NCBI GenBank assembly: GCA_001599295.1
Contig: BCGN01000002.1
Coordinates: 434,001-498,000, forward strand
Direction: 5' to 3'
DNA length: 64,000 nt
Origin: Sporopachydermia quercuum
Taxonomy: Eukaryota
Below the pieces are notes generated by a model. It made no database searches, was not told where the DNA came from, and saw only the letters and a list, made by a program, of their open reading frames with translations. Both the position numbers and the translations under genes were made by a program. Of this stretch, positions 35,691 through 48,138 are shown piece after piece; the stretch's first letter is position 1; every line of letters starts with the position of its first letter.

Positions 35691-37898
35691 TCAGAATTGA
35701 CTGCTGTATACTACTAAATTTCGATGATGATATGTCCCTTGGTACCATGACTCTTCTTCAATACGAATGCTGTCTTCACAATTCATAAGATCATATGAGC
35801 GTTCTACTTCAAACGCATTGTTGCATTCAGATGATAATTCATCATTACTATCATCATNCACAATCCTATAATTATTATCTGAATTAGAATCATTGTCATC
35901 ATCTTTACAGGCCGTTGAGCATTGACAATCAAGACTTCCAGGAAGATCTGATGAACCAATAGAATCAATAATGTATTCATTTTCACTCATCAAATCAGAT
36001 GGTAGTTCAAGTGAGTATTCAAGGTCAGCATTCGACAGTTGATTCAAAGTATTCAATCCTTCAATATTCATAATATAATCATTAACATTTTCATCGATAG
36101 ATTTCCCAATCCTTCCTTCATTAGCTCGTGGTATCTCCATTATGTCAAGTGATGAGTCATTATGGGTATTTTCGTTTTCATTCTCTAATGAATTTGAGTA
36201 CCTGTTTGAAGAATTCATTGAATGTTTAGCAAGTTGTTTGGATAAAAAATTCTTGGTACTAAACATAGATGCTTTTCTTGGTATTTTCTGTAATGACGAG
36301 AACTTTGGCTTCATGATTTCAAATGGTTCGTTGCTAATATGCTTTTGTAAATCATTAGAGCTATCAGTGTCAAAATCCTCGACTGCTTTTACATTCTCCG
36401 ACAATGCCTCTTTTCTTTCCAAGTCGATATAAGTCGAAGACTTTTTTGAACTTGATCCGACAAAATATGTTTGACAGGACAGCTCCTGGGCAGTCACTCG
36501 CTTACTGGGATCCCATATGAAGCATAAGGATAACCAATCAGTAAAACTAGGATCATTGAGACTCGGTGTCAAACTACTAATACGCTCTCCTTTGATCTAG
36601 AAAAGATTGGGTTAGTATCAGGTGATTATGCGTGAGCGGGGCATAAAGAATTGGAGATAGAACTATCAATGAGTGACATAAACACATGGCATTGATAGAG
36701 ATAAATCAACTCCATAATCTCAAGCACTAAGTATGACAACACGGTAATTAATACATCTGGAAATCCTATATTCGCCTTTTCGCATAATGTTATAGCTTCT
36801 GGCCATGATTTACCGGTTGATGAAGATGAATCGCTACCAATATTGGCTAATGATTCCAAGATGGATCTGAAAGAAGTTTCACCTTGCTTGGGAAAAGGAG
36901 TGCCTAACACTTTAAAAATTTTCCATATCTGGTCAATTTCATCATTCCCAGGGAATAAAGGGGCTAGATTTACGATTTCAACGGCTAAAGTAGCAAAGGC
37001 CCATATATCCACAGGTTTTCCATAACTATTCTTTCTTAGTAAGATTTCAGGAGATCTATACCACCTTGTTGAAACATATTCCGTGTATTTACTATTATCG
37101 TATATTGTTCTTGAAAGGCCAAAATCACCTAGTTTAATCACCAAATCTTTATTGGTGAACTTTTTCTTCGATTGATAACCCATTGGAGGGACAGTTACTA
37201 GAATATTCTCCGGTTTCAGATCTCTATGGAAAAATCCATTGTCATGAATATGTTTCATACCAGCTAGAATCTGGCTAAGAATGAATTTCACTCTTTTAGA
37301 TGGAAGGGCTTTACCGTTACGACCTTTCATGTACTGATGTAGATTCTGTTGCATGAATTCCATTACAATGTTGAGTCTGAACTGTTCAATGTCAATAAAA
37401 ACTTCAAACACCGATACTAAGTTCTCATGAGGAGGCATATCTCTGATGAATCGAATCTCTCTTTCATTATCGTAATGTCGAACATCCAACACTTTCTTCA
37501 TTGTTTTGATAGCCACCTGAAAATAAACATTAGTAGTAGTTAGAATGTGGCTTTTCAGTAAAGTAGATACAAGAAACTGAGATGAAGGGGTTTGTTCATA
37601 CCATATGTGTATGTTGGGAATATCCTGAGATCAGAGCAAATGAAGAAGACTTTTTATTGGCCGCAGCCGAAGTATTGGCGTTTATATCATTTGATGGTAA
37701 ACTAGATGGTAGCAAACCAGTTCTGAAGTCATTATCTCTGCAAACTTCAGCTAAGATAACAACTCCAAAGCTACCATTGCCTAATGATTGGATACCGGAA
37801 TACCGTTGACAATAGGACCGAAAGGGAATATTGATTCCTGGGGCCTCCCGTCCAGCACGCTGCAATTTTTGCTTTTCATGGTTGTTTCTCTGCTCCAT
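35691..37898 (-). CDS. IME2: Meiotic Ser/Thr kinase Ime2, MAK/ICK family (3 exons: 37898-37602, 37516-36755, 36596-35691)
   Basis: LGNGSFGVV...M/VAIKTM, HRDLKPEN, DFG, YTEYVSTRWYRSPEILLR, GFPD/IKGER...WDPSKR and an acidic tail. It neighbours SET3/4 and PAM16 as in S. cerevisiae. Confidence 0.9.
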
Positions 37899-40845
37899 GA
37901 TTGACAATTTTTAGTGCTGCAGAATATGAAATTAATGCCTTCCTACTTAGGCTGTATGGATGATATGGGTATGTGGAATCTTATCAGCTTTCTGAAACCT
38001 GATATAGAGAATCTGAAAACAAAATTCAGGAGCTCTGATTTTGATTAAAGGCAGATTCACTTTCTCATAAACTTCAAAATAACAACAATCTTCATATCAA
38101 TAATAGCTAATCCACTTGATATATGATCTGTCAACTCAAGATTAATAAACTAGAAAACTTTCATCTCAAGAAATCAATCGGCTCTTTCCCTACAGTTCTG
38201 TACTTGATAATGGAGTAGTCCAATGTTCAGATAGGTAACATTCAGCTTATGAGCACTAGAGAAGATCGTCAGTGAGCGATGCATACTACGGATGATCTGT
38301 TCATCAGGCAGTGAAGAACAATAAAGAAAACAAAAGTGGATTTGTAATTTGAGTAAGTGTTTACATGAGCCGCAATAGCAAAACCCAGACAATAATAATC
38401 ACAAACGATAATGCTCAAGGGAAGACAAGATGGGGTATTAAAATATTACATAATCTTCTATGTACAATGAGGAATTTTAGAATAGGAAAAGTGTACACAA
38501 TAGTGCATTGGAATGCATGAGAAAGCCAGCCTAATAGGTGTAAGACAATGGAACGTGCAGCGGTGCACTGAGCAACTAATCAAACAATTAAATGAGGGTG
38601 TTCTATAACCGCTGGCCAAGTCAACAGAGGCGGTGAAACCAAAACTATTTTTACTCAAAATATATCATTCTTACCATCAATTAATTTTGCCTTTCCTCAC
38701 AGTGCATCTTCCTTAGGTCTGGTAAATGGGATGCCCTACGTATTTTTATGGGACATCGATGCCCCACAAGTCTAAGACAGATAGGTGCTTAGGCAGTGTG
38801 TCATATAAGTAATGAAAAGTCAATGCAAACTTGCTCCCAAACCATCGCTACGCTGTCTGATTTGATTCTGCACGTGTTTTTTTTCTTTCATTTCTTACTT
38901 TATAAAATTTCAACTAGTTTATTGAGATGAAAACTTAGATGCCCTTATGTCATTTGAATTGGAGGTACCCAGCGTAAATGATATTTGTGCTATGGAATCG
39001 TAAAGTAGCATTAATTGTGTCCGGATAGGATTTCCCAATGAGGCATTTAGAAATAATGTTGGCTACAATCATTGTCCTTTTATGGCTTATAATGAATATA
39101 GCAAGAATATATGTCTACGATGATGCTTAGTTCCGGATGTTTTACAATTGAAGTTTTAGACTGAAAACCGTTAATAGGATCTTTTAGAAGAAGAGTGGAG
39201 GAGGAAGCAAGCATAGCAAGAGAACTACAGGAGATTCAGTTTGGCAGTATTTGGAATATACGATAATTCACGAAACTTAATGCTGATTCAATCACACTCA
39301 TGTCCGATATCTACCAGGTTTTCAACTACTGTGGTGTGTGTCCGAAGAATATACGAACCGCTTCACTAGATATAAGGGACAGTTGGAAGCTCATCCTGGG
39401 TGACGGTTAGTACAATGATCCGGCTCGAATATTGATTAGAGCGTTGTCGACTGGTGAAGAGTTTGATGCTAACTAGATTGCAGCACATTATTTTCAGTAT
39501 GAATTTAAATATCTTACCTTTCCTCTTTGAACCACTGAAAATCGCTATTTTTTATCACATTATGCCCATGCTTTTCCTATGATCAATCAAAATCATTATA
39601 CATAGATGTCCAATAAGAGGTGCTCGTATGTTTACCAAATACTCATTCATTTTCAACCGGTTCATAAAATGTTTCAAATAGTAACCGGACAACGGTTTTC
39701 ATCCATATGACAAGAACTTCCGTCTTCTATTTACCATACACTCGGAGTATAAACAGAACAGCTTCCAAACCATTTCGGATACTTTCTAGTATTGTCAACA
39801 CTATATTCAAACGAGTACTACGCAGAACTATGTTCTCTCTCTAATGACCATTGTTCCATACTTCTTCCATTCAACTTCCCACAGTTGGGCAATTGACCCA
39901 GGTTTCAAATACACTGTCCGGATAAACAATTGTCCCATATCACACTTATTGTGTCCCAAACAACCGCTATCAAGAATTTTCTCCCATTCACATTGTCATC
40001 TCACTTTTACCGTCCGCAATTTTTCTCTCGCACTCTTTCTCCTGTCCCGAACTTGTTTTCATTCCAATGTATGTAATATGTAGATTCTTCCTGGAGATCG
40101 AGGCTTGGTTTGATAATAGTTACTGATGCAAATATTGTTGATCTGTAGAGCAAACTGAAAAAGTAAGCAAACCGTTTAGAAGGTGCTTGTTAAAGTAAAC
40201 ATTGAGTTGTACACTGTGGAACTGCAAGGTAGATCGGGCGATTGAAGCACTTGAANCAAACACATACCATACCAACTGGAAGTTAGTGAATTGTTTGTCC
40301 AAGTAAACAATACTNCAAAAGAAACGTCTGTTGTTGGTATTGAAAGAACAATAATAATCAAGTCAATTGGCGTTTAGTTGAATTGTAGTGAAGATTTGCA
40401 AAACAATTGGTTGCTGGGTATCAGAGTCAATTAAGTAGCTGATCGGCCGAACAAACAAACAAACAACAGTACTAGATAGTATCTATTGTCCATAATACCA
40501 TTCATACACTATTTACATTAGTCATAACAAAGTATCAAGACGCGAATAGATAAGAATTCTGATATAGGAAATCTCTGTATTGATCGATGGTTGGAAAATA
40601 GACAGAGATATCTGATTCAAATTGAATACCTGGTTAAGAACGTGGAACTTAATGGTGCTTGATATTTTGATGTATCATTGAACGTGGAAGGCTAAACATT
40701 GAGGTTCAACTAAGAGCAAGAAGGATCTATAAAGAATTGGACATTCAAAGGACATTCTCATATTGAATATTTCAAAAACTTATCATCAAACCAATCATTA
40801 ACAGAAGTATACTTCACCCTTACATAACTGAAATCTAACATCACA

Positions 40846-42939
40846 ATGAACCAAGATCATCTANCCTCAACAGCACAAGGTGCGCTGACTCAATCATTGA
40901 GCACACACATTATGCTAACGAACACACAAGTTAACTCACAAGTTAATAGCTTGGGAGTGACAAATCAAGGATCACCAGCACAATCGTTACCAAGAAAAAG
41001 AAAAATACCTGATGACCATATTATCTCCCAAGCAATTGCAGAGTATAGGAACCCACAAAATACTAAATCTATCAGAAAGCTTGCTGCTGAATACGGCATA
41101 CCTAAATCAACTCTTCATGGACGTTGCAAAGAACAAGAAAAGTTGCTTTCGTCTCCTGACCAGACTCATTTGAAGGGCAACCGCCGTACTTCGAGATTTT
41201 CAGCGAATTTAACTGCATCACCAGCACATATATCTTCTCACGATGCNTCTAACTTAGCTGGCAATTCCCCAAACAACAGATCTGTTGTTGGAAATACTGG
41301 TATGGTTGGCGGTCCTGGAGGCATGCAACAACAACAACTAAGAAAGCCCAACCGACCAATGAATGCAGATATGGTAGATGGAACATCTTCAGGTGGAGGT
41401 AACACAGGAAGTGGCCAATCTTCCTCAGGACACGTTTCTCAGAACAATAGAGGTGTTCGATCGCGAGGAGGGATAGCTACAGGATTGGTGTCAAACGATG
41501 GAAGTACATTAGGGGCTTTAGGCTTAAATGATGATTTGGACTATCCAGCTATTGTCACATCTACTTCTTCATTGGGAACGATATCAACAGAAGCAAGCAA
41601 AGTGGCCAACCAATTGACAGCTATTGAAGAAAGTCTTTTGGCAATGTTTTTAGAAACCTTGTCAGCACTGTATTTCACACCAACTAGAAAGCTGATTGAG
41701 TCTTATGCTTTGAATATACAAAGCATGAAGTTTCATGACTATATAAGACGTCAGAAATCAAATGGACTCAGTGTACCTATTGTCAATAATTTATTAGGAA
41801 TGGAACGAGGCATTTGCCATATCAGATCACAGTTTGTTTCTCGCCTGTTTAATAGACTCTCTAATAGAAGAGTCGGCAGTACTGCTATTACTTTGACAGA
41901 TTTGCTTGCTTCTTCTATGAATCTCCATCTTAGAAGTGGGCCCATTGGTCAAAATTCAGGACATCACAATAATAGGACAGGAAATAACAATAATAACGGG
42001 TCTAATGCTAAGAATAATAACACTGGTGGTAACTCTGAGACCGGCAATAATGAAGCCAATAACGCTGATCCTGGTAACACTATGTCTCCTGTACTTAGTG
42101 ACATCTATTCAAGTGCCAATGCCTTATCCTTCGGAGGAATTGATCTTCAAATGCGTGATTTCACTGTTTTACTACCAATTTTGATCAACAGACTTAACGT
42201 CGCCATAGATAATGTCTTCTTCCTCAACGAAGTCTCATCTACTGTTTCCTCATCCTTATCGTCCGGAGAAGCAGGAGGNACTATTGAATTCTCAGAAACA
42301 AACACTATCACTCTAGTAGAACTAGTAAGAGGATCAGGTACCCTGGTTAACCCAGGATATTTTATATCTAAATTTGAATCAATAGGTACGGGCTCATTGA
42401 ACTCTCAAGCTTTAGATTTAGCATCAACGAACCCGGAGATGTTTGGATCGCATAATGCAAATCTATTTGCTCTTCAAGAAGACAGTCAGCCACCTAGTAG
42501 CTATCAAAGCATAACATTAAGAACAGGATCATCTTCAGATGGATTTTTCCACTCACGAAATGCTTCAGAATACTTCCAGGATGTTTTTGTATTTGATTCT
42601 CAATACAAAATACTTGTTGTTGATCGTTATATCTCGTTTCTCAATGAAGAGATTTTGGACTTCTTTCGAAGAAACAAGATTATATTATTATTTCTTCCCA
42701 GTATTTATAACAGTCCTTATAATGAAACAAATGGCAGTATTTCTAGCAATGTAATGTTGAATTTAAGCTGCAGTTTCTTAAACCAGGTTCGAGGTATCCG
42801 GAACCAATTGGATTCAATTGTACAGAATTTGGAGCAAGAAACAAGTGACAATACTATCTCTGGTGTTATTCGAGTTAGAAGTAACACGTTCATAAATGAT
42901 TGGATTGCTAAGTATGAAGGTGCACGAGCACGACTATAA
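40846..42939 (+). CDS. Pogo/Fot1 transposase-derived (CENP-B-like) protein, probably domesticated
   Basis: Psq-type HTH (AIAEYR...SIRKLAAEYGIPKSTLHGR) and CENP-B-type HTH (LTAIEESLLAMFL...TPTRKLIESYA). Degenerate DDE_1 blocks are NVFFLNEV, TITLVELVRGSG and ILVVDRYISFLNEEILDFFRRNKIILLFLP. The 697-aa ORF is uninterrupted. Confidence 0.8.
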   Translation: MNQDHLXSTAQGALTQSLSTHIMLTNTQVNSQVNSLGVTNQGSPAQSLPRKRKIPDDHIISQAIAEYRNPQNTKSIRKLAAEYGIPKSTLHGRCKEQEKLLSSPDQTHLKGNRRTSRFSANLTASPAHISSHDXSNLAGNSPNNRSVVGNTGMVGGPGGMQQQQLRKPNRPMNADMVDGTSSGGGNTGSGQSSSGHVSQNNRGVRSRGGIATGLVSNDGSTLGALGLNDDLDYPAIVTSTSSLGTISTEASKVANQLTAIEESLLAMFLETLSALYFTPTRKLIESYALNIQSMKFHDYIRRQKSNGLSVPIVNNLLGMERGICHIRSQFVSRLFNRLSNRRVGSTAITLTDLLASSMNLHLRSGPIGQNSGHHNNRTGNNNNNGSNAKNNNTGGNSETGNNEANNADPGNTMSPVLSDIYSSANALSFGGIDLQMRDFTVLLPILINRLNVAIDNVFFLNEVSSTVSSSLSSGEAGXTIEFSETNTITLVELVRGSGTLVNPGYFISKFESIGTGSLNSQALDLASTNPEMFGSHNANLFALQEDSQPPSSYQSITLRTGSSSDGFFHSRNASEYFQDVFVFDSQYKILVVDRYISFLNEEILDFFRRNKIILLFLPSIYNSPYNETNGSISSNVMLNLSCSFLNQVRGIRNQLDSIVQNLEQETSDNTISGVIRVRSNTFINDWIAKYEGARARL

Positions 42940-44152
42940 CTGATCTAGATAATTGAGATGTGGTGAAAGTGCTGAGATAAAATAGTATATTAGTGGTACA
43001 TTAGTTAGTATCTTGGTATCGTTGATGACGGTGCGTTATAGTGTTGCTTATCAATAGCACTATCTACTTAGTGATTTATTATTGTCATTATCTCTTTATT
43101 CTACGGTTGTTCTCTTTGTTCCTTGCCTGTTGGTATATCATTGTTGCTACACTTTTGTCCATTTCCTTTCCTTCTCTTTTGCTATTCCCTGTTCTTTCTT
43201 TTTTATTCATAAACACTGCGCTCATGGAGGATGGTTAACCAGGAGCCCAGTTTATTACGGCTTTATTTTTTCTATCTCTTACGGGGATAGCTGGGACTGG
43301 AGATTTATAACTTTTACCTAACTGACAAAAACAGTTTCACCCTATTTCTAGTATTTTTATTTCATTATCTTATTGACTTTACCTCCCTATTTTTGTATTG
43401 TATGATTGCTCTTTTTCTGTCATCCTGCATCTCATTCTTTTCTTTCAATGGTTCATTGATGGCGATTGACGTCTGCACCACGCTGGGTATCAACGTGACT
43501 ACCTATCTGCTACGGTGTGTTTGGTTGCGGAGGACATATATGTGTTTTTTATATTGCCATTTTGCTATGTGTTGTGTATAGTAGTGTGTATTCTATTTGT
43601 TTGTATATCTACCTGTTTTATATTGTGGAAAAAACTGATTTTTATATACTATAACGGTAAGATTGTAGAAGAAGAACTCGAACCAGTATTTGACATGGAG
43701 CTCAAANACTATTGAAGAACTGGTAGGAGGATATGCACTACTAGTAGATTCTGTGCATAGATGCTCATTATGTATCCTTTGGTGAATTAAACCAAAAAAG
43801 AAGCNATACCTTTTTCTCTTTCTCATAATCACGTTGGAATCTTTCCAGAGGTAGTATCACTCAACGTCTTCTCTCCCTCTAGAAGATTATACAGTGAGAG
43901 CTGATACCAGGGAAGGGTAACTAAACATGAAAGGAGACATGAAGGCCTTGGATCTCAGTCTCATTGGGCAAGCAATGTGAGAATTATTCACTTCTTATTA
44001 GTGTCTGTCCTATCCGATAGTACCAGTCATATAAATAGATACGATGCCATCTATCGCCGTAAACAAAATATCGAGATATTATTCTTATTATCAGCAAATT
44101 GGGTGTTGAATCGAAAACATCAATCATTGTTATAAGCTTTATTTAGTACAAA

Positions 44153-44847
44153 ATGTTTGCCAGAATTCATACTACAGCTTTCGCTTCCAGCAAGAGATTT
44201 TTCTCTTCCACAGTTGCTGCTAATAAAACCAAAGTGTTCTTCGTACCTGGTGTTTACGAAGGAAAAACTGGTAAGTTCCAATTGGTGTCTGAATGGCTGT
44301 AACCCATGTTTAGATATGGCGAAAGCTTTCAGTTTCGTTCGAAATTGAACAAATGAATCCATTGTATTAACTGAGTACTCTAGCGAAGCCATTACCAAAA
44401 ATCGAATTTGAACTATATGATGACGTTTGTCCTAAGACAGCTGAAAACTTCAGAGCTCTTTGCACTGGTGAAAAGGGATTTGGATATGCCAACAGTCCTT
44501 TCCACAGAATTATTCCCCAATTCATGATTCAAGGCGGTGACTTCACTAATGGCAATGGTACTGGTGGTAAATCTATCTACGGCAACAGGTTCGATGACGA
44601 AGACTTTTCCAAGAAGCATGATAGACCTGGCCTTTTATCTATGGCTAATGCCGGTCCCAATACCAATGGATCTCAGTTTTTCATTACCACTGTTCCTTGC
44701 CCTTGGTTAGATGGAAAGCATGTTGTTTTTGGTGAAGTTACTGAAGGTTATGACACTGTTAAGATTCTCGAGAAGTATGGTTCTTCTTATGGTACTCCCT
44801 CTGCCAAGATTGTTGTTCTTGAAGCTGGTGAAATCAAAGACGAGTAA
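44153..44847 (+). CDS. CPR3: Mitochondrial cyclophilin Cpr3 (2 exons: 44153-44270, 44384-44847)
   Basis: Presequence-like [19 protein letters not shown], then KVFF.../[46 protein letters not shown] and [10 protein letters not shown]. The intron is GTAAGT...TATTAAC...TAG. Confidence 0.93.
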
Positions 44848-46027
44848 ATAATTGAGCTTGCTTCTATCTAGTTGTAAGTGCTTAATGATATAATGCTTCT
44901 TGTATATGACTGATGATTTATTCACTGAATTGAATTGAATAGAAGTATTTAATATGAATGCATAGTAGATGCAAGTTTATGCATGTCATGAAATGTATGA
45001 CTTAAGTTGTTTTGATAGTGTAGTATGTCGAAGACGCTGATGGACACGAGCATAGTAAAGCGCGACGTAGCAGGAGCGGTTCCTATAGCCTGGTCAACAT
45101 ACATTATGCAATTATAAAATTAATTTTGGCTACTTAAATAATCCACCTAAATAATCAAACAAATTAAAGCAAATCTCCTAAAATACTAGTAAAATCTATC
45201 AAAAGTATAGATTCTAAAAGTATTTCTAAATCATTTCCACTTGATCTCCCGGCCTCCCCCTTCAATATACAGTCTTTGTCGTATGTCACAAACCTTTCCG
45301 CTTACATCGGGATTTGCTTCACTTTTTCCTTACATTAATCACAGTCACCCCTTTCTTCTACTGAAGATAAGTAAATCGATTGATATCATAATACCTTTTG
45401 ACTATAATCAACCACTTGTGATCGATGACAGAGCACTGTTCTGCTTCATTGTTGTATGGTATGTAAATCTTCGATGGGTATCTCTTGTTTTCTATGATTG
45501 ATGTCACATATACATATTCGTCACCTTGTATCAACGACGCACTGTCGGAGACCGTATGTACTGGATCCGAAGGTTATCAACTACAGGAGTATCAATAACA
45601 CTGCATACAATTACTATACACTTGATACCTGAAACAAATCAGGCGTTTTCATGACACAAAGCGCTCCCAACGGTTTTGCTTGTACCTGTGGGCCAATCAC
45701 ACAGGTCATAGGATCTGATCTATTGTCATGATATGCTGATATAGGTAGTATAGTAAGCAGGGACACATAACTTTTTAAACAGATGGACGCACTTCTACAC
45801 ACTTCCCTGTTAATCGTGAAAAACGGTGATCATCAAAATATTTAAAACCATGCGGGAATATCTAGCTTAACTGATAAGATCGTTGATTTTTACTAACAAA
45901 CATCTGTTCTCGAACAGCATAGAGTAATATTGTCTATTGCTTTTCAACTTTTTTCCATTACTCAGCTACTTCTATAACATCCAATTGACTCAAGCCATTG
46001 GGATTACGTGAGCATTTATAATTCACA

Positions 46028-48138
46028 ATGGATTCCATCAAAGATAAGATCCAGAACATATCATTGTATGATGTGAAGGCTTACGTCCGGAAGGCGCAAA
46101 ATGGTAAGTAGAAATTGGTTGTGGTGGTGAAAAGAGGATCGTTAGAATGTATGGTAAATCCTAATGGAAGTCATTCACAGAGTGCAATGTGACCGGGCAG
46201 AGTAAACATGATAGTTGATGATATAAATGATGGTTTACCTTAAGAGAGAATGATAGAAACTTTTTTGTCAATGCAGAACATAGTTCTTGCTACAGTCTTT
46301 CAATGCCCTCAACGTCTGCTCAATATATTAATAGCTTTTTTTCTTGAACCAACAGCAGTTCGAACTGAAAAAAGATTGATGAGAATGGACCATGCACGAG
46401 GAGTGAGGTTAGATTGACAACTTGGTTGGGGATACAGATTTGCAGTAAAGGTGTCACTGATATCTGGCAATAAGGATAAATCATGTCACTATGCAAATTT
46501 CTAGAGTGAAAATGAAACGAAGTACTTAGAAATGGAAGTCTTGACTAATTGTCATTCTCATGTTTCTTGTTTGCCTGCCTGTTACCTCCTCTCATCAGCN
46601 ACTGCTATGCTGTCATCTTAGCTACCTATTCTATCGGGGGTTTCCAAAAACCCTTGTTTTTCTTCCTATTTGTACACGACAAGTTTTGTCAATGTCACTT
46701 GTTCAATTGTCATGGTAATCAGCTACTTAATGTACTATTGAAGCAATGCAACCCTAGCTATTCTGTCAACCTATCTAACATGATCGATCCTTTATCTTTA
46801 TTTCTCTTGATTCTTCTATTATCACAGCTAACAAAATTTCTAGCCGTTATGAATTACACTGAAACCGAAGCTAAAGTAAGGGAAGCCACCAACAACGAAC
46901 CTTGGGGTGCCAGTTCTACTTTAATGCAAGAAATTGCCCAAGCTACAAATAACTATCAACAACGAGTAGAAGCCTTAAGTTTCATCTTCCGTAGATTTCA
47001 AGATAAGTCAGCCCACGAATGGAGACAGATTTACAAAGCTCTACAATTATTGGAATATCTCATCAAAAATGGTAGTGAAAGAGTAATCGACGATGCTAGA
47101 GCTAACCTAAGTCTTATACAAATGCTCAAATCTTTTCATTATATTGATCAAAATGGTAAAGATCAAGGAATCAATGTTCGAAATAGAGCAAAGGAGTTGA
47201 CTGTTTTACTTAATGATGACTCATTAATACGATCTGAACGGAAAAAGGCAAGAGAAAACTTGCAAAAGTATAAAGGAATGTCGTCAAATGGATTATATGG
47301 TAATAGTTCAATTGGTGGAAGCAGTTATGCTTCAAGTTCTAATTACGGGAATGAAGATTATTACGATGATACCACCGGGGAGTACGGTGGATATTCTGGA
47401 GGGATTTATGGTGATGGAGGAGTTTTTGGTGAAAGGTTTGATGCTGAAGATTCAGGAATAAGAAGTTCTAGAGGAACTGGTAATGGTTTCACTAGTGGAA
47501 GTAGAAGTGAGAAGAAAAGATTTGAGGAGTATGAAGATAGTAGTAGTGAGAGTGTTAATGATAAGGGATATTCACAAGCAGCCACCAGTAAAGTTAATGC
47601 TGCTGGCAGCTCGAGCCGTGCTAGTTCTGGTGCTGGAGCTGGAGCTGGCAGTTTAATGGATTTCCTTGATGCGCCACCTGCAAGTTCCGCAGGTGCTGCA
47701 ACAGAGGACGACGATGAGTTCACCGATTTCCAAACGGCACCTACAGAAACTGCAACTGGCACAGGATCTGCTGTAGCACTAAGTAAAGATATCCTTGCAG
47801 ATTTATTCAGCTCTGGCTCCAGCAACACTGCTNCTAATAATGATTTGAATGTGTTCATGTCAAATGTTCCCCCAGCCAATTCCAATTCGAACTTCAGTGG
47901 CAACTTTGGTTCTAACTCCAATACCTTTGGCTCTTTTGCTACTAATACTGGTAGCACCAATAACACAGCTCAATCTAATGTTTCTTCTGCATCATCAAAA
48001 CCTGACCCTTTTTCTTCATTGTTGTTCTCTGCTAAAACAACCAAAAAGAGTGATCATCATGCAAGAAGTGTTGATGCGGCTAGTACTAGCACCAGTAAAC
48101 CAACTACTGCTGGAAATTCTATGGACTTATTACTATAA
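46028..48138 (+). CDS. ENT3: ENTH-domain epsin-related protein Ent3 (2 coding exons: 46028-46103, 46844-48138)
   Basis: SLYDVKAYVRKAQN/AVMNYTETEAKVREATNNEPWGASS...EWRQIYKALQLLEYL, DDDEFTDFQ and a C-terminal DLLL. The 740-nt intron is GTAAGT...GCTAAC...TAG. Confidence 0.94.

Follow-up and report, generated by a model that had tools for sequence, protein, structure and literature searches.

Results

Organization of the locus

The stretch of DNA analysed here, hereafter called the window, is 64,000 nucleotides long and covers positions 434001–498000 of contig C2 (G000:C2) in a genome of 16.4 Mb, assembled in 15 contigs, whose gene set is that of a budding yeast. Gene A lies at window positions 40846–42939 on the forward strand (474846–476939 of the contig) and consists of an open reading frame (ORF) of 697 aa free of internal stops, as stated in the initial annotation. 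The standard genetic code applies, because CTG falls on leucine positions of conserved host motifs. Three masked N bases are present in the ORF (codons 7, 134 and 478); the distribution of N bases over codon positions 3/2/1 (7/5/4) is uninformative as to heterozygous sites. In a second sample, which may be the source strain itself, the ORF of gene A showed no differences.

Gene A is flanked by ordinary host genes, a kinase gene that we take to be IME2-like and a cyclophilin gene. Other genes of the window presumably encode a polo kinase, a Sin3-like protein, RPL4, a Zn2Cys6/PAS factor, a PHD-SET protein and an ENTH protein. The kinase gene (35691–37899, reverse strand) is apparently split by introns, with a 5' exon at about 37899–37601, a main exon at about 37520–36750 and further open stretches down to 35691, and between it and gene A lie about 2.9 kb devoid of long ORFs. 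At position 40069, some 780 nt before the gene A start codon, a donor-like GTATGT hexamer follows a pyrimidine-rich stretch. An intron in the 5' UTR of gene A with this donor is possible; no strict branch site was found between the hexamer and the ATG. The region 37000–47000 contains no Rfam match. The GC3 of gene A (0.28, against 0.22–0.40 in 11 host genes) and its codon use are both inside the host range, and such host-like codon use could come from long residence alone.

Domain layout

Gene A is made of recognizable blocks parted by four in-frame inserts. Near the N-terminus lies the basic cluster PRKRK (residues 49–53; 40990–41004, forward strand as for all features of gene A), a candidate nuclear localization signal that we read as such from general knowledge. 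It immediately precedes the first helix-turn-helix (HTH), of the psq type (residues 57–99; 41014–41142), which is detected by Pfam as HTH_psq above the cut-off (residues 60–96, E 1.7e-6) and scores 18.7 bits on a profile of Fot transposases; its recognition helix keeps the T and R that are near-invariant in Fot. Insert 1, rich in G/S/N/Q (residues 101–248; 41146–41589), leads to an eroded second HTH of the Tc5 type (residues 249–345; 41590–41880), identified by the Fot profile (8.7 bits) and by alignment, in which the G..W motif of this domain reads S..F. The N/G/S-rich insert 2 (residues 346–430; 41881–42135) is followed by an RNase H-like DDE/D catalytic domain (residues 431–697; 42136–42936), recognized by profile, alignment and model, probably dead, and including insert 3 (residues 511–560). 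Inserts 1 and 2 were delimited by composition and landmark spacing. The G/S/N/Q content is 40–49 per cent in the inserts vs 20–32 per cent in the domains, which bears out the low-complexity inserts described in the initial annotation.

That annotation had also announced two HTH domains and DDE_1 blocks. Pfam agrees with respect to HTH_psq; the second HTH and the DDE_1 domain are visible only with the Fot profile, HTH_Tnp_Tc5 and DDE_1 being missing from the Pfam matches of gene A even at E<=1; our family searches of the genome likewise missed gene A for both. The description of the protein as ‘CENP-B-like’ had to be replaced by Fot/psq-type: CENP-B_N reaches 14.2 bits, below the Pfam cut-off of 21.2, and HTH_ABP1_N is not among the Pfam matches.

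The spacing between the HTH landmarks is 168 residues in gene A vs 21–22 in the 15 Fot proteins measured, and the remaining landmark spacings compare with the Fot medians as 131 vs 57, 31 vs 38, 101 vs 74 and 47 vs 35. The C-terminus lies 57 residues past the third catalytic site vs a Fot median of 231, so that about 170 C-terminal residues are gone; a search of the flanks for a frameshifted remainder gave no profile match. Introns were considered as the source of the inserts and rejected, as the ORF contains no donor-branch pair. All five changes of block spacing, as well as the truncation, leave a single frame.

Fot ancestry and the catalytic site

A Fot reference set was assembled by searching metagenome contigs for a motif pattern. 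Among the 117 loci obtained, 104 had the motif in an open frame and 23 were long enough, of which 22 were kept once a near-duplicate had been dropped. The search pattern imposes the first Asp of these references and leaves the other two free; 19 of the 22 show the DD35D spacing, and the other three were unmatched by the pattern. On the profile of these 22 transposases gene A reaches 39.3 bits, summed over three collinear segments, residues 57–99, 249–297 and 561–619 corresponding in order to profile positions 7–48, 51–99 and 243–307. The best of 200 locally shuffled copies of gene A (156 scored) reached 3.3 bits, and no other frame of the window exceeded 1.8 bits. The C-terminal part alone scores 10.7 bits, HHalign gives probabilities of 88 per cent for the HTH and 74 per cent for the block of the second Asp (D2), and identity to the reference transposases is about 19 per cent over aligned core columns. 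Gene A descends from a Fot-type DNA transposase of the pogo superfamily, the origin that had been proposed for it.

Erosion of the catalytic triad had been proposed as well, and the alignment with the 22 Fot transposases agrees with it at each site. N461 (42226–42228) replaces the first catalytic Asp, the adjacent E462 being kept. The second, D593 (42622–42624), is retained, as the profile also indicates, and the G and H that should follow it are lost. The place of the QPLD block with the third Asp is taken by MLNLSCS (residues 637–643; 42754–42774), non-acidic in every register: the third site falls on S641 or C642 by alignment and on N629 by DD35 counting. Read in this way, the sequence shows gene A to have lost two of its three catalytic acids.

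We modelled the fold of residues 432–697 from an alignment of 37 rows, comprising gene A, two paralogues and 34 of 39 Fot domains. The predicted structure (pLDDT 70) is laid out like RNase H, and N461 and D593 sit on the strands expected for them. Compared with 48,161 chains, it most closely resembled Mos1 (Z 10.1, rmsd 3.5, 157 residues aligned), followed by Metnase (Z 9.6, rmsd 3.5, 155 aligned); as the alignment consists mostly of Fot transposases, this agreement is partly circular and does not constitute independent proof. Foldseek found nothing at E<=0.001 with the model, the same kind of protein being ranked first at a best E of 0.023. A model made from the single sequence was unusable (pLDDT 35), and sequence searches of the PDB with gene A gave only weak psq-type matches (E 0.55 and 1.2).

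Absence of transposon features

Gene A is present in a single copy and has no transposon ends, in agreement with the initial annotation as to the ends. A DNA search of the genome with the 6.7 kb around the gene (37600–44300) returned a single match, i.e. at least one copy, and the matches listed in a protein search of the genome were gene A itself and a stretch of 42 residues in another gene, paralogue B. No pair of inverted repeats of >=20 nt brackets the ORF within 37500–44400; terminal inverted repeats (TIRs) were seen at two of six reference Fot loci tested (43 nt at 93 per cent and 63 nt at 95 per cent). When the transposases of these TIR-bearing loci (n=2) were used as queries, the matches listed in the present genome were only paralogues B and D, at 23–27 per cent identity, so that we saw no active Fot-type element; counts from such a search are minimal ones.

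Evidence for selection

Gene A keeps 19 of 50 near-invariant Fot columns and 65 of 75 core hydrophobic columns (0.87). Neutral simulations (n=880), continued until they had lost as many invariant residues as gene A, retained 0.69 +/- 0.06 of the core, with a maximum of 0.85, so that none of the 880 attained the value of gene A, a comparison in which gene A is helped by alignment optimization. All 880 gained at least seven stops, and the frame was still open at 10 per cent neutral substitutions in none of 3000 runs. The retained core, together with the lack of any stop, argues therefore that selection has kept gene A; long purifying selection is strongly favoured by these indirect tests.

Other pogo-type genes of the genome

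Searches of the genome revealed five more single pogo-type ORFs, designated B to F. Their scores on the Fot profile are 144 bits for B, 94 for D, 30 for E, 5 for C and -1 for F, compared with 39.3 for A, and their identity to gene A is 25 per cent for B, 20–21 per cent for D and E and 12 per cent for C. Gene A is thus not a lone domestication; it is one of four diverged single-copy Fot-type genes (A, B, D and E) in this genome.

Paralogue B (560 aa, triad absent) is located on the reverse strand of contig C2 at about 615,660–617,350 (L016:4664–6346) and is the best pairwise match of both A and E. Its domains are the least eroded and it is the closest relative of gene A, on the same contig; it adjoins a VPS35-like gene. 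Paralogue E (729 aa, with long inserts and a seemingly dead triad) lies on the forward strand of contig C9 at about 586,720–588,910 (L014:3720–5909). In A, B and E alike, no more than one of the three catalytic Asp remains. Paralogue D (629 aa, single copy), on the forward strand of contig C2 at about 2,097,660–2,099,550 (L017:4664–6553), keeps D289, D406 and E442, the latter two being separated by 35 residues (DD35E). NPVE forms its last block, a sequence that we take to be nearer to the Tc1/IS630 pattern than to QPLD. D is the only Fot-type member here that, judging from its residues, might still cut DNA. No TIR pair was found at B, D or E. In all four genes the stretch linking strands one and two, which Fot proteins conserve, is shorter or of low complexity.

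Gene C (587 aa), on the forward strand of contig C10 at about 370,030–371,800 (L018:4035–5798), is Pdc2-like, with a DDE_1 match at E 2e-29, an Abp1-like N-terminus and all of D198, D310 and D340 present (DD29D). By its N-terminus it is presumably the PDC2 orthologue; the sequence data say a CENP-B/Abp1-type protein. Gene F (1194 aa), on the reverse strand of contig C6 at about 329,440–333,030 (L015:3445–7029), combines a Tc5-type HTH with a DDE-like domain that N/Q/S-rich inserts interrupt; three Asp of this domain fall on the triad columns, at wide intervals. We read it as a sixth pogo-type host gene, which by its profile score is not Fot-type. A match to CENP-B_N on contig C4 was below the cut-off, looks like an unrelated protein and was discarded.

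In a tree of 28 rows A joins B (93/76) on long branches, that of gene A amounting to 1.56 changes per column. The grouping of A, B, D and E as one clade is acceptable to the AU test (p 0.41), yet it was not recovered in this tree; once the two CENP-B-type rows were removed, it appeared with 98.4 SH-aLRT support in fast IQ-TREE and 0.80 in FastTree. A clade of A with gene C has a p-AU of 0.083. Trees built from these sequences cannot decide between one domestication and several for A, B, D and E.

Searches for homologues

No homologue of gene A was found among 8000 scored candidates, none of 104 pattern matches from metagenomes could be confirmed, and the C-terminal 219 aa gave no usable match in the ESM Atlas. 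A single match among 1.84 billion representatives was rejected as an unrelated psq-repeat protein resembling gene A in the HTH only. Run X4, from another organism, yielded a 197-nt contig identical to gene A (window 41377–41573) at depth 2, plus cyclophilin matches; we did not accept it as an orthologue, and it is most simply explained as cross-sample carry-over within one study. Run X5 covers cyclophilin only. The same kind of search with paralogues B and D found none either, and, as both are clear relatives of transposases, these blanks show low reach rather than novelty. Moreover, two host housekeeping proteins were also absent as exact sequences, so the lineage may simply be unsampled. In viral contigs the Fot pattern had no match.

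Discussion

To our knowledge, DNA transposons are almost absent from budding yeasts, in which Pdc2/Rag3 is the known host gene of pogo origin. The four Fot-type genes described here add to this picture. According to parts of a survey by Gao et al. (2020, PMC7386202), Fot elements are defined by HTH_psq and/or HTH_Tnp_Tc5, a DD35D triad and TIRs of 40–60 bp, and are reported in Pezizomycotina and Basidiomycota, Lemi being the only element named there for Saccharomycotina. For an active element we looked for TIRs of 40–100 bp with a TA/TAA target duplication. Gene A shares with the Fot and Fot-like elements covered in those parts (Fot1, Pot2, Tan1, Flipper) the collinear series of HTH_psq, Tc5-type HTH and DDE_1-type domain; it differs from them in having neither DD35D, TIRs nor the C-terminus, in being single copy and in carrying four low-complexity inserts. 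Among the papers ranked first in our literature searches, which covered main texts, mostly open-access, none reported a budding-yeast host gene derived from Fot. The sections seen of PMC10799480 describe many co-options of transposable elements in Saccharomycotina and name only CENP-B/Abp1 for the pogo class.

A close parallel is provided by Pdc2 and Rag3, presented in a portion of PMC2134285 as degenerate pogo-related transcription factors. Like them, gene A is a budding-yeast host gene derived from a pogo transposase, with a degenerate catalytic domain and an N-terminal DNA-binding domain; unlike them, it is of the psq/Fot type and coexists with a separate Pdc2-like gene on contig C10. Pdc2/Rag3 appear to us the best model for how gene A may work. 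Repeated domestication of pogo transposases has been described (PMC4231638, PMC7325037). CENP-B, Abp1/Cbh1/Cbh2, TIGD and JRK likewise go back to domesticated pogo transposases; they are host proteins that bind DNA, encoded by single-copy genes and forming sets of paralogues. Other pogo families gave rise to them, and they bear CENP-B_N or HTH_ABP1_N, neither of which Pfam recognizes in gene A above its cut-off.

We consider it probable that gene A was domesticated long ago from a Fot-type transposase and is now a host gene for a catalytically dead, nuclear DNA-binding regulator. Its protein would enter the nucleus through the basic cluster PRKRK and bind DNA by the psq-type HTH. The insert of 150 residues would uncouple this HTH from the eroded second one, and we propose that a transposon end is therefore no longer read by the two as a rigid pair. 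The RNase H-like domain, folded and dead, could serve as a scaffold or oligomerization surface, and the disordered G/S/N/Q inserts might recruit cofactors. Gene A would then act as a sequence-selective regulator of transcription or chromatin, in the manner of Pdc2/Rag3.

A structural chromatin factor resembling CENP-B or Abp1/Cbh, which binds centromeres or LTRs and recruits silencing, would share with gene A both the domain plan and the dead or degenerate catalytic domain (PMC4231638, PMC2134285), and S. pombe likewise keeps three partly redundant copies. We regard such a role as unlikely: the donor family, with its psq-type HTH and subthreshold CENP-B_N match, is a different one, nothing in the data ties gene A to centromeres or repeats, and long G/S/N/Q inserts fit, as general knowledge has it, a transcription factor better. 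The length of the branch, the modest share of invariant columns kept, the C-terminal truncation and the blank orthologue searches could also be those of a functionless relic, either a transposon fossil or a once-useful gene recently starting to decay. Neutral decay, however, gave at least seven stops and a poorer core in every simulation, and all length changes of gene A are in frame, so that this reading fits only a very recent loss of function and is very unlikely. That gene A is a diverged duplicate or orthologue of PDC2 we find scarcely credible, and the same holds for an active transposon. The AU test leaves the clade of A with the Pdc2-like gene formally unrejected; gene C, however, has the DDE_1 domain, an Abp1-like N-terminus and D-D-29-D spacing, a negligible Fot score in comparison with A and little identity to it. 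The initial annotation had tentatively set gene A apart from Pdc2; gene C fits the part of the Pdc2-like protein better than the psq-type gene A does, the tree alone being equivocal. With a dead triad, a single copy and no TIRs, gene A cannot be an active element.

The four genes also lend themselves to a bolder reading, in which A, B and E are dead, non-catalytic helpers of D in a complex for programmed DNA rearrangement. PiggyMac and PgmL1-5 of Paramecium, and Kat1 and alpha3 of Kluyveromyces lactis, are sets of several domesticated transposases in which one retains a full acidic triad and others are dead (parts of PMC6143343, PMC5499181 and PMC13469147), the first two of these sources also supplying the precedents for helpers. 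The single-copy D, with its DD35E triad and no TIR pair, beside three genes each short of at least two Asp, recalls this arrangement. Those systems, however, belong to the piggyBac, hAT and MULE superfamilies and their interaction and rearrangement are proven, whereas for the present genes interaction, co-expression and rearrangement would be conjectural. Furthermore, the altered segment between the first two strands is found in D as well as in the others, the G-H found in Fot after D1 and D2 is lost in D, which may for this reason be dead too, and the tree leaves a common origin of D and A undecided. A helper function of A, B and E is accordingly highly improbable, and we give as little credence to the Fot family having been tamed into a multi-gene system in which A, B, E and D jointly perform such rearrangement. 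If true, the rearrangement could be mating-type switching or element excision, and the four-gene system would be the first from the pogo superfamily as far as the literature was searched.

On the preferred reading as a regulator, gene A by itself is a further case of a well-known kind of recruitment, and the four-gene set, D above all, deserves more attention than gene A alone; interest would rise sharply if D were active and the dead members assisted it. Four Fot-derived genes plus one more eroded gene of pogo type, the majority at or under the limit of what Pfam detects, suggest that standard domain screens have passed over a source of DNA-binding regulators specific to the lineage.
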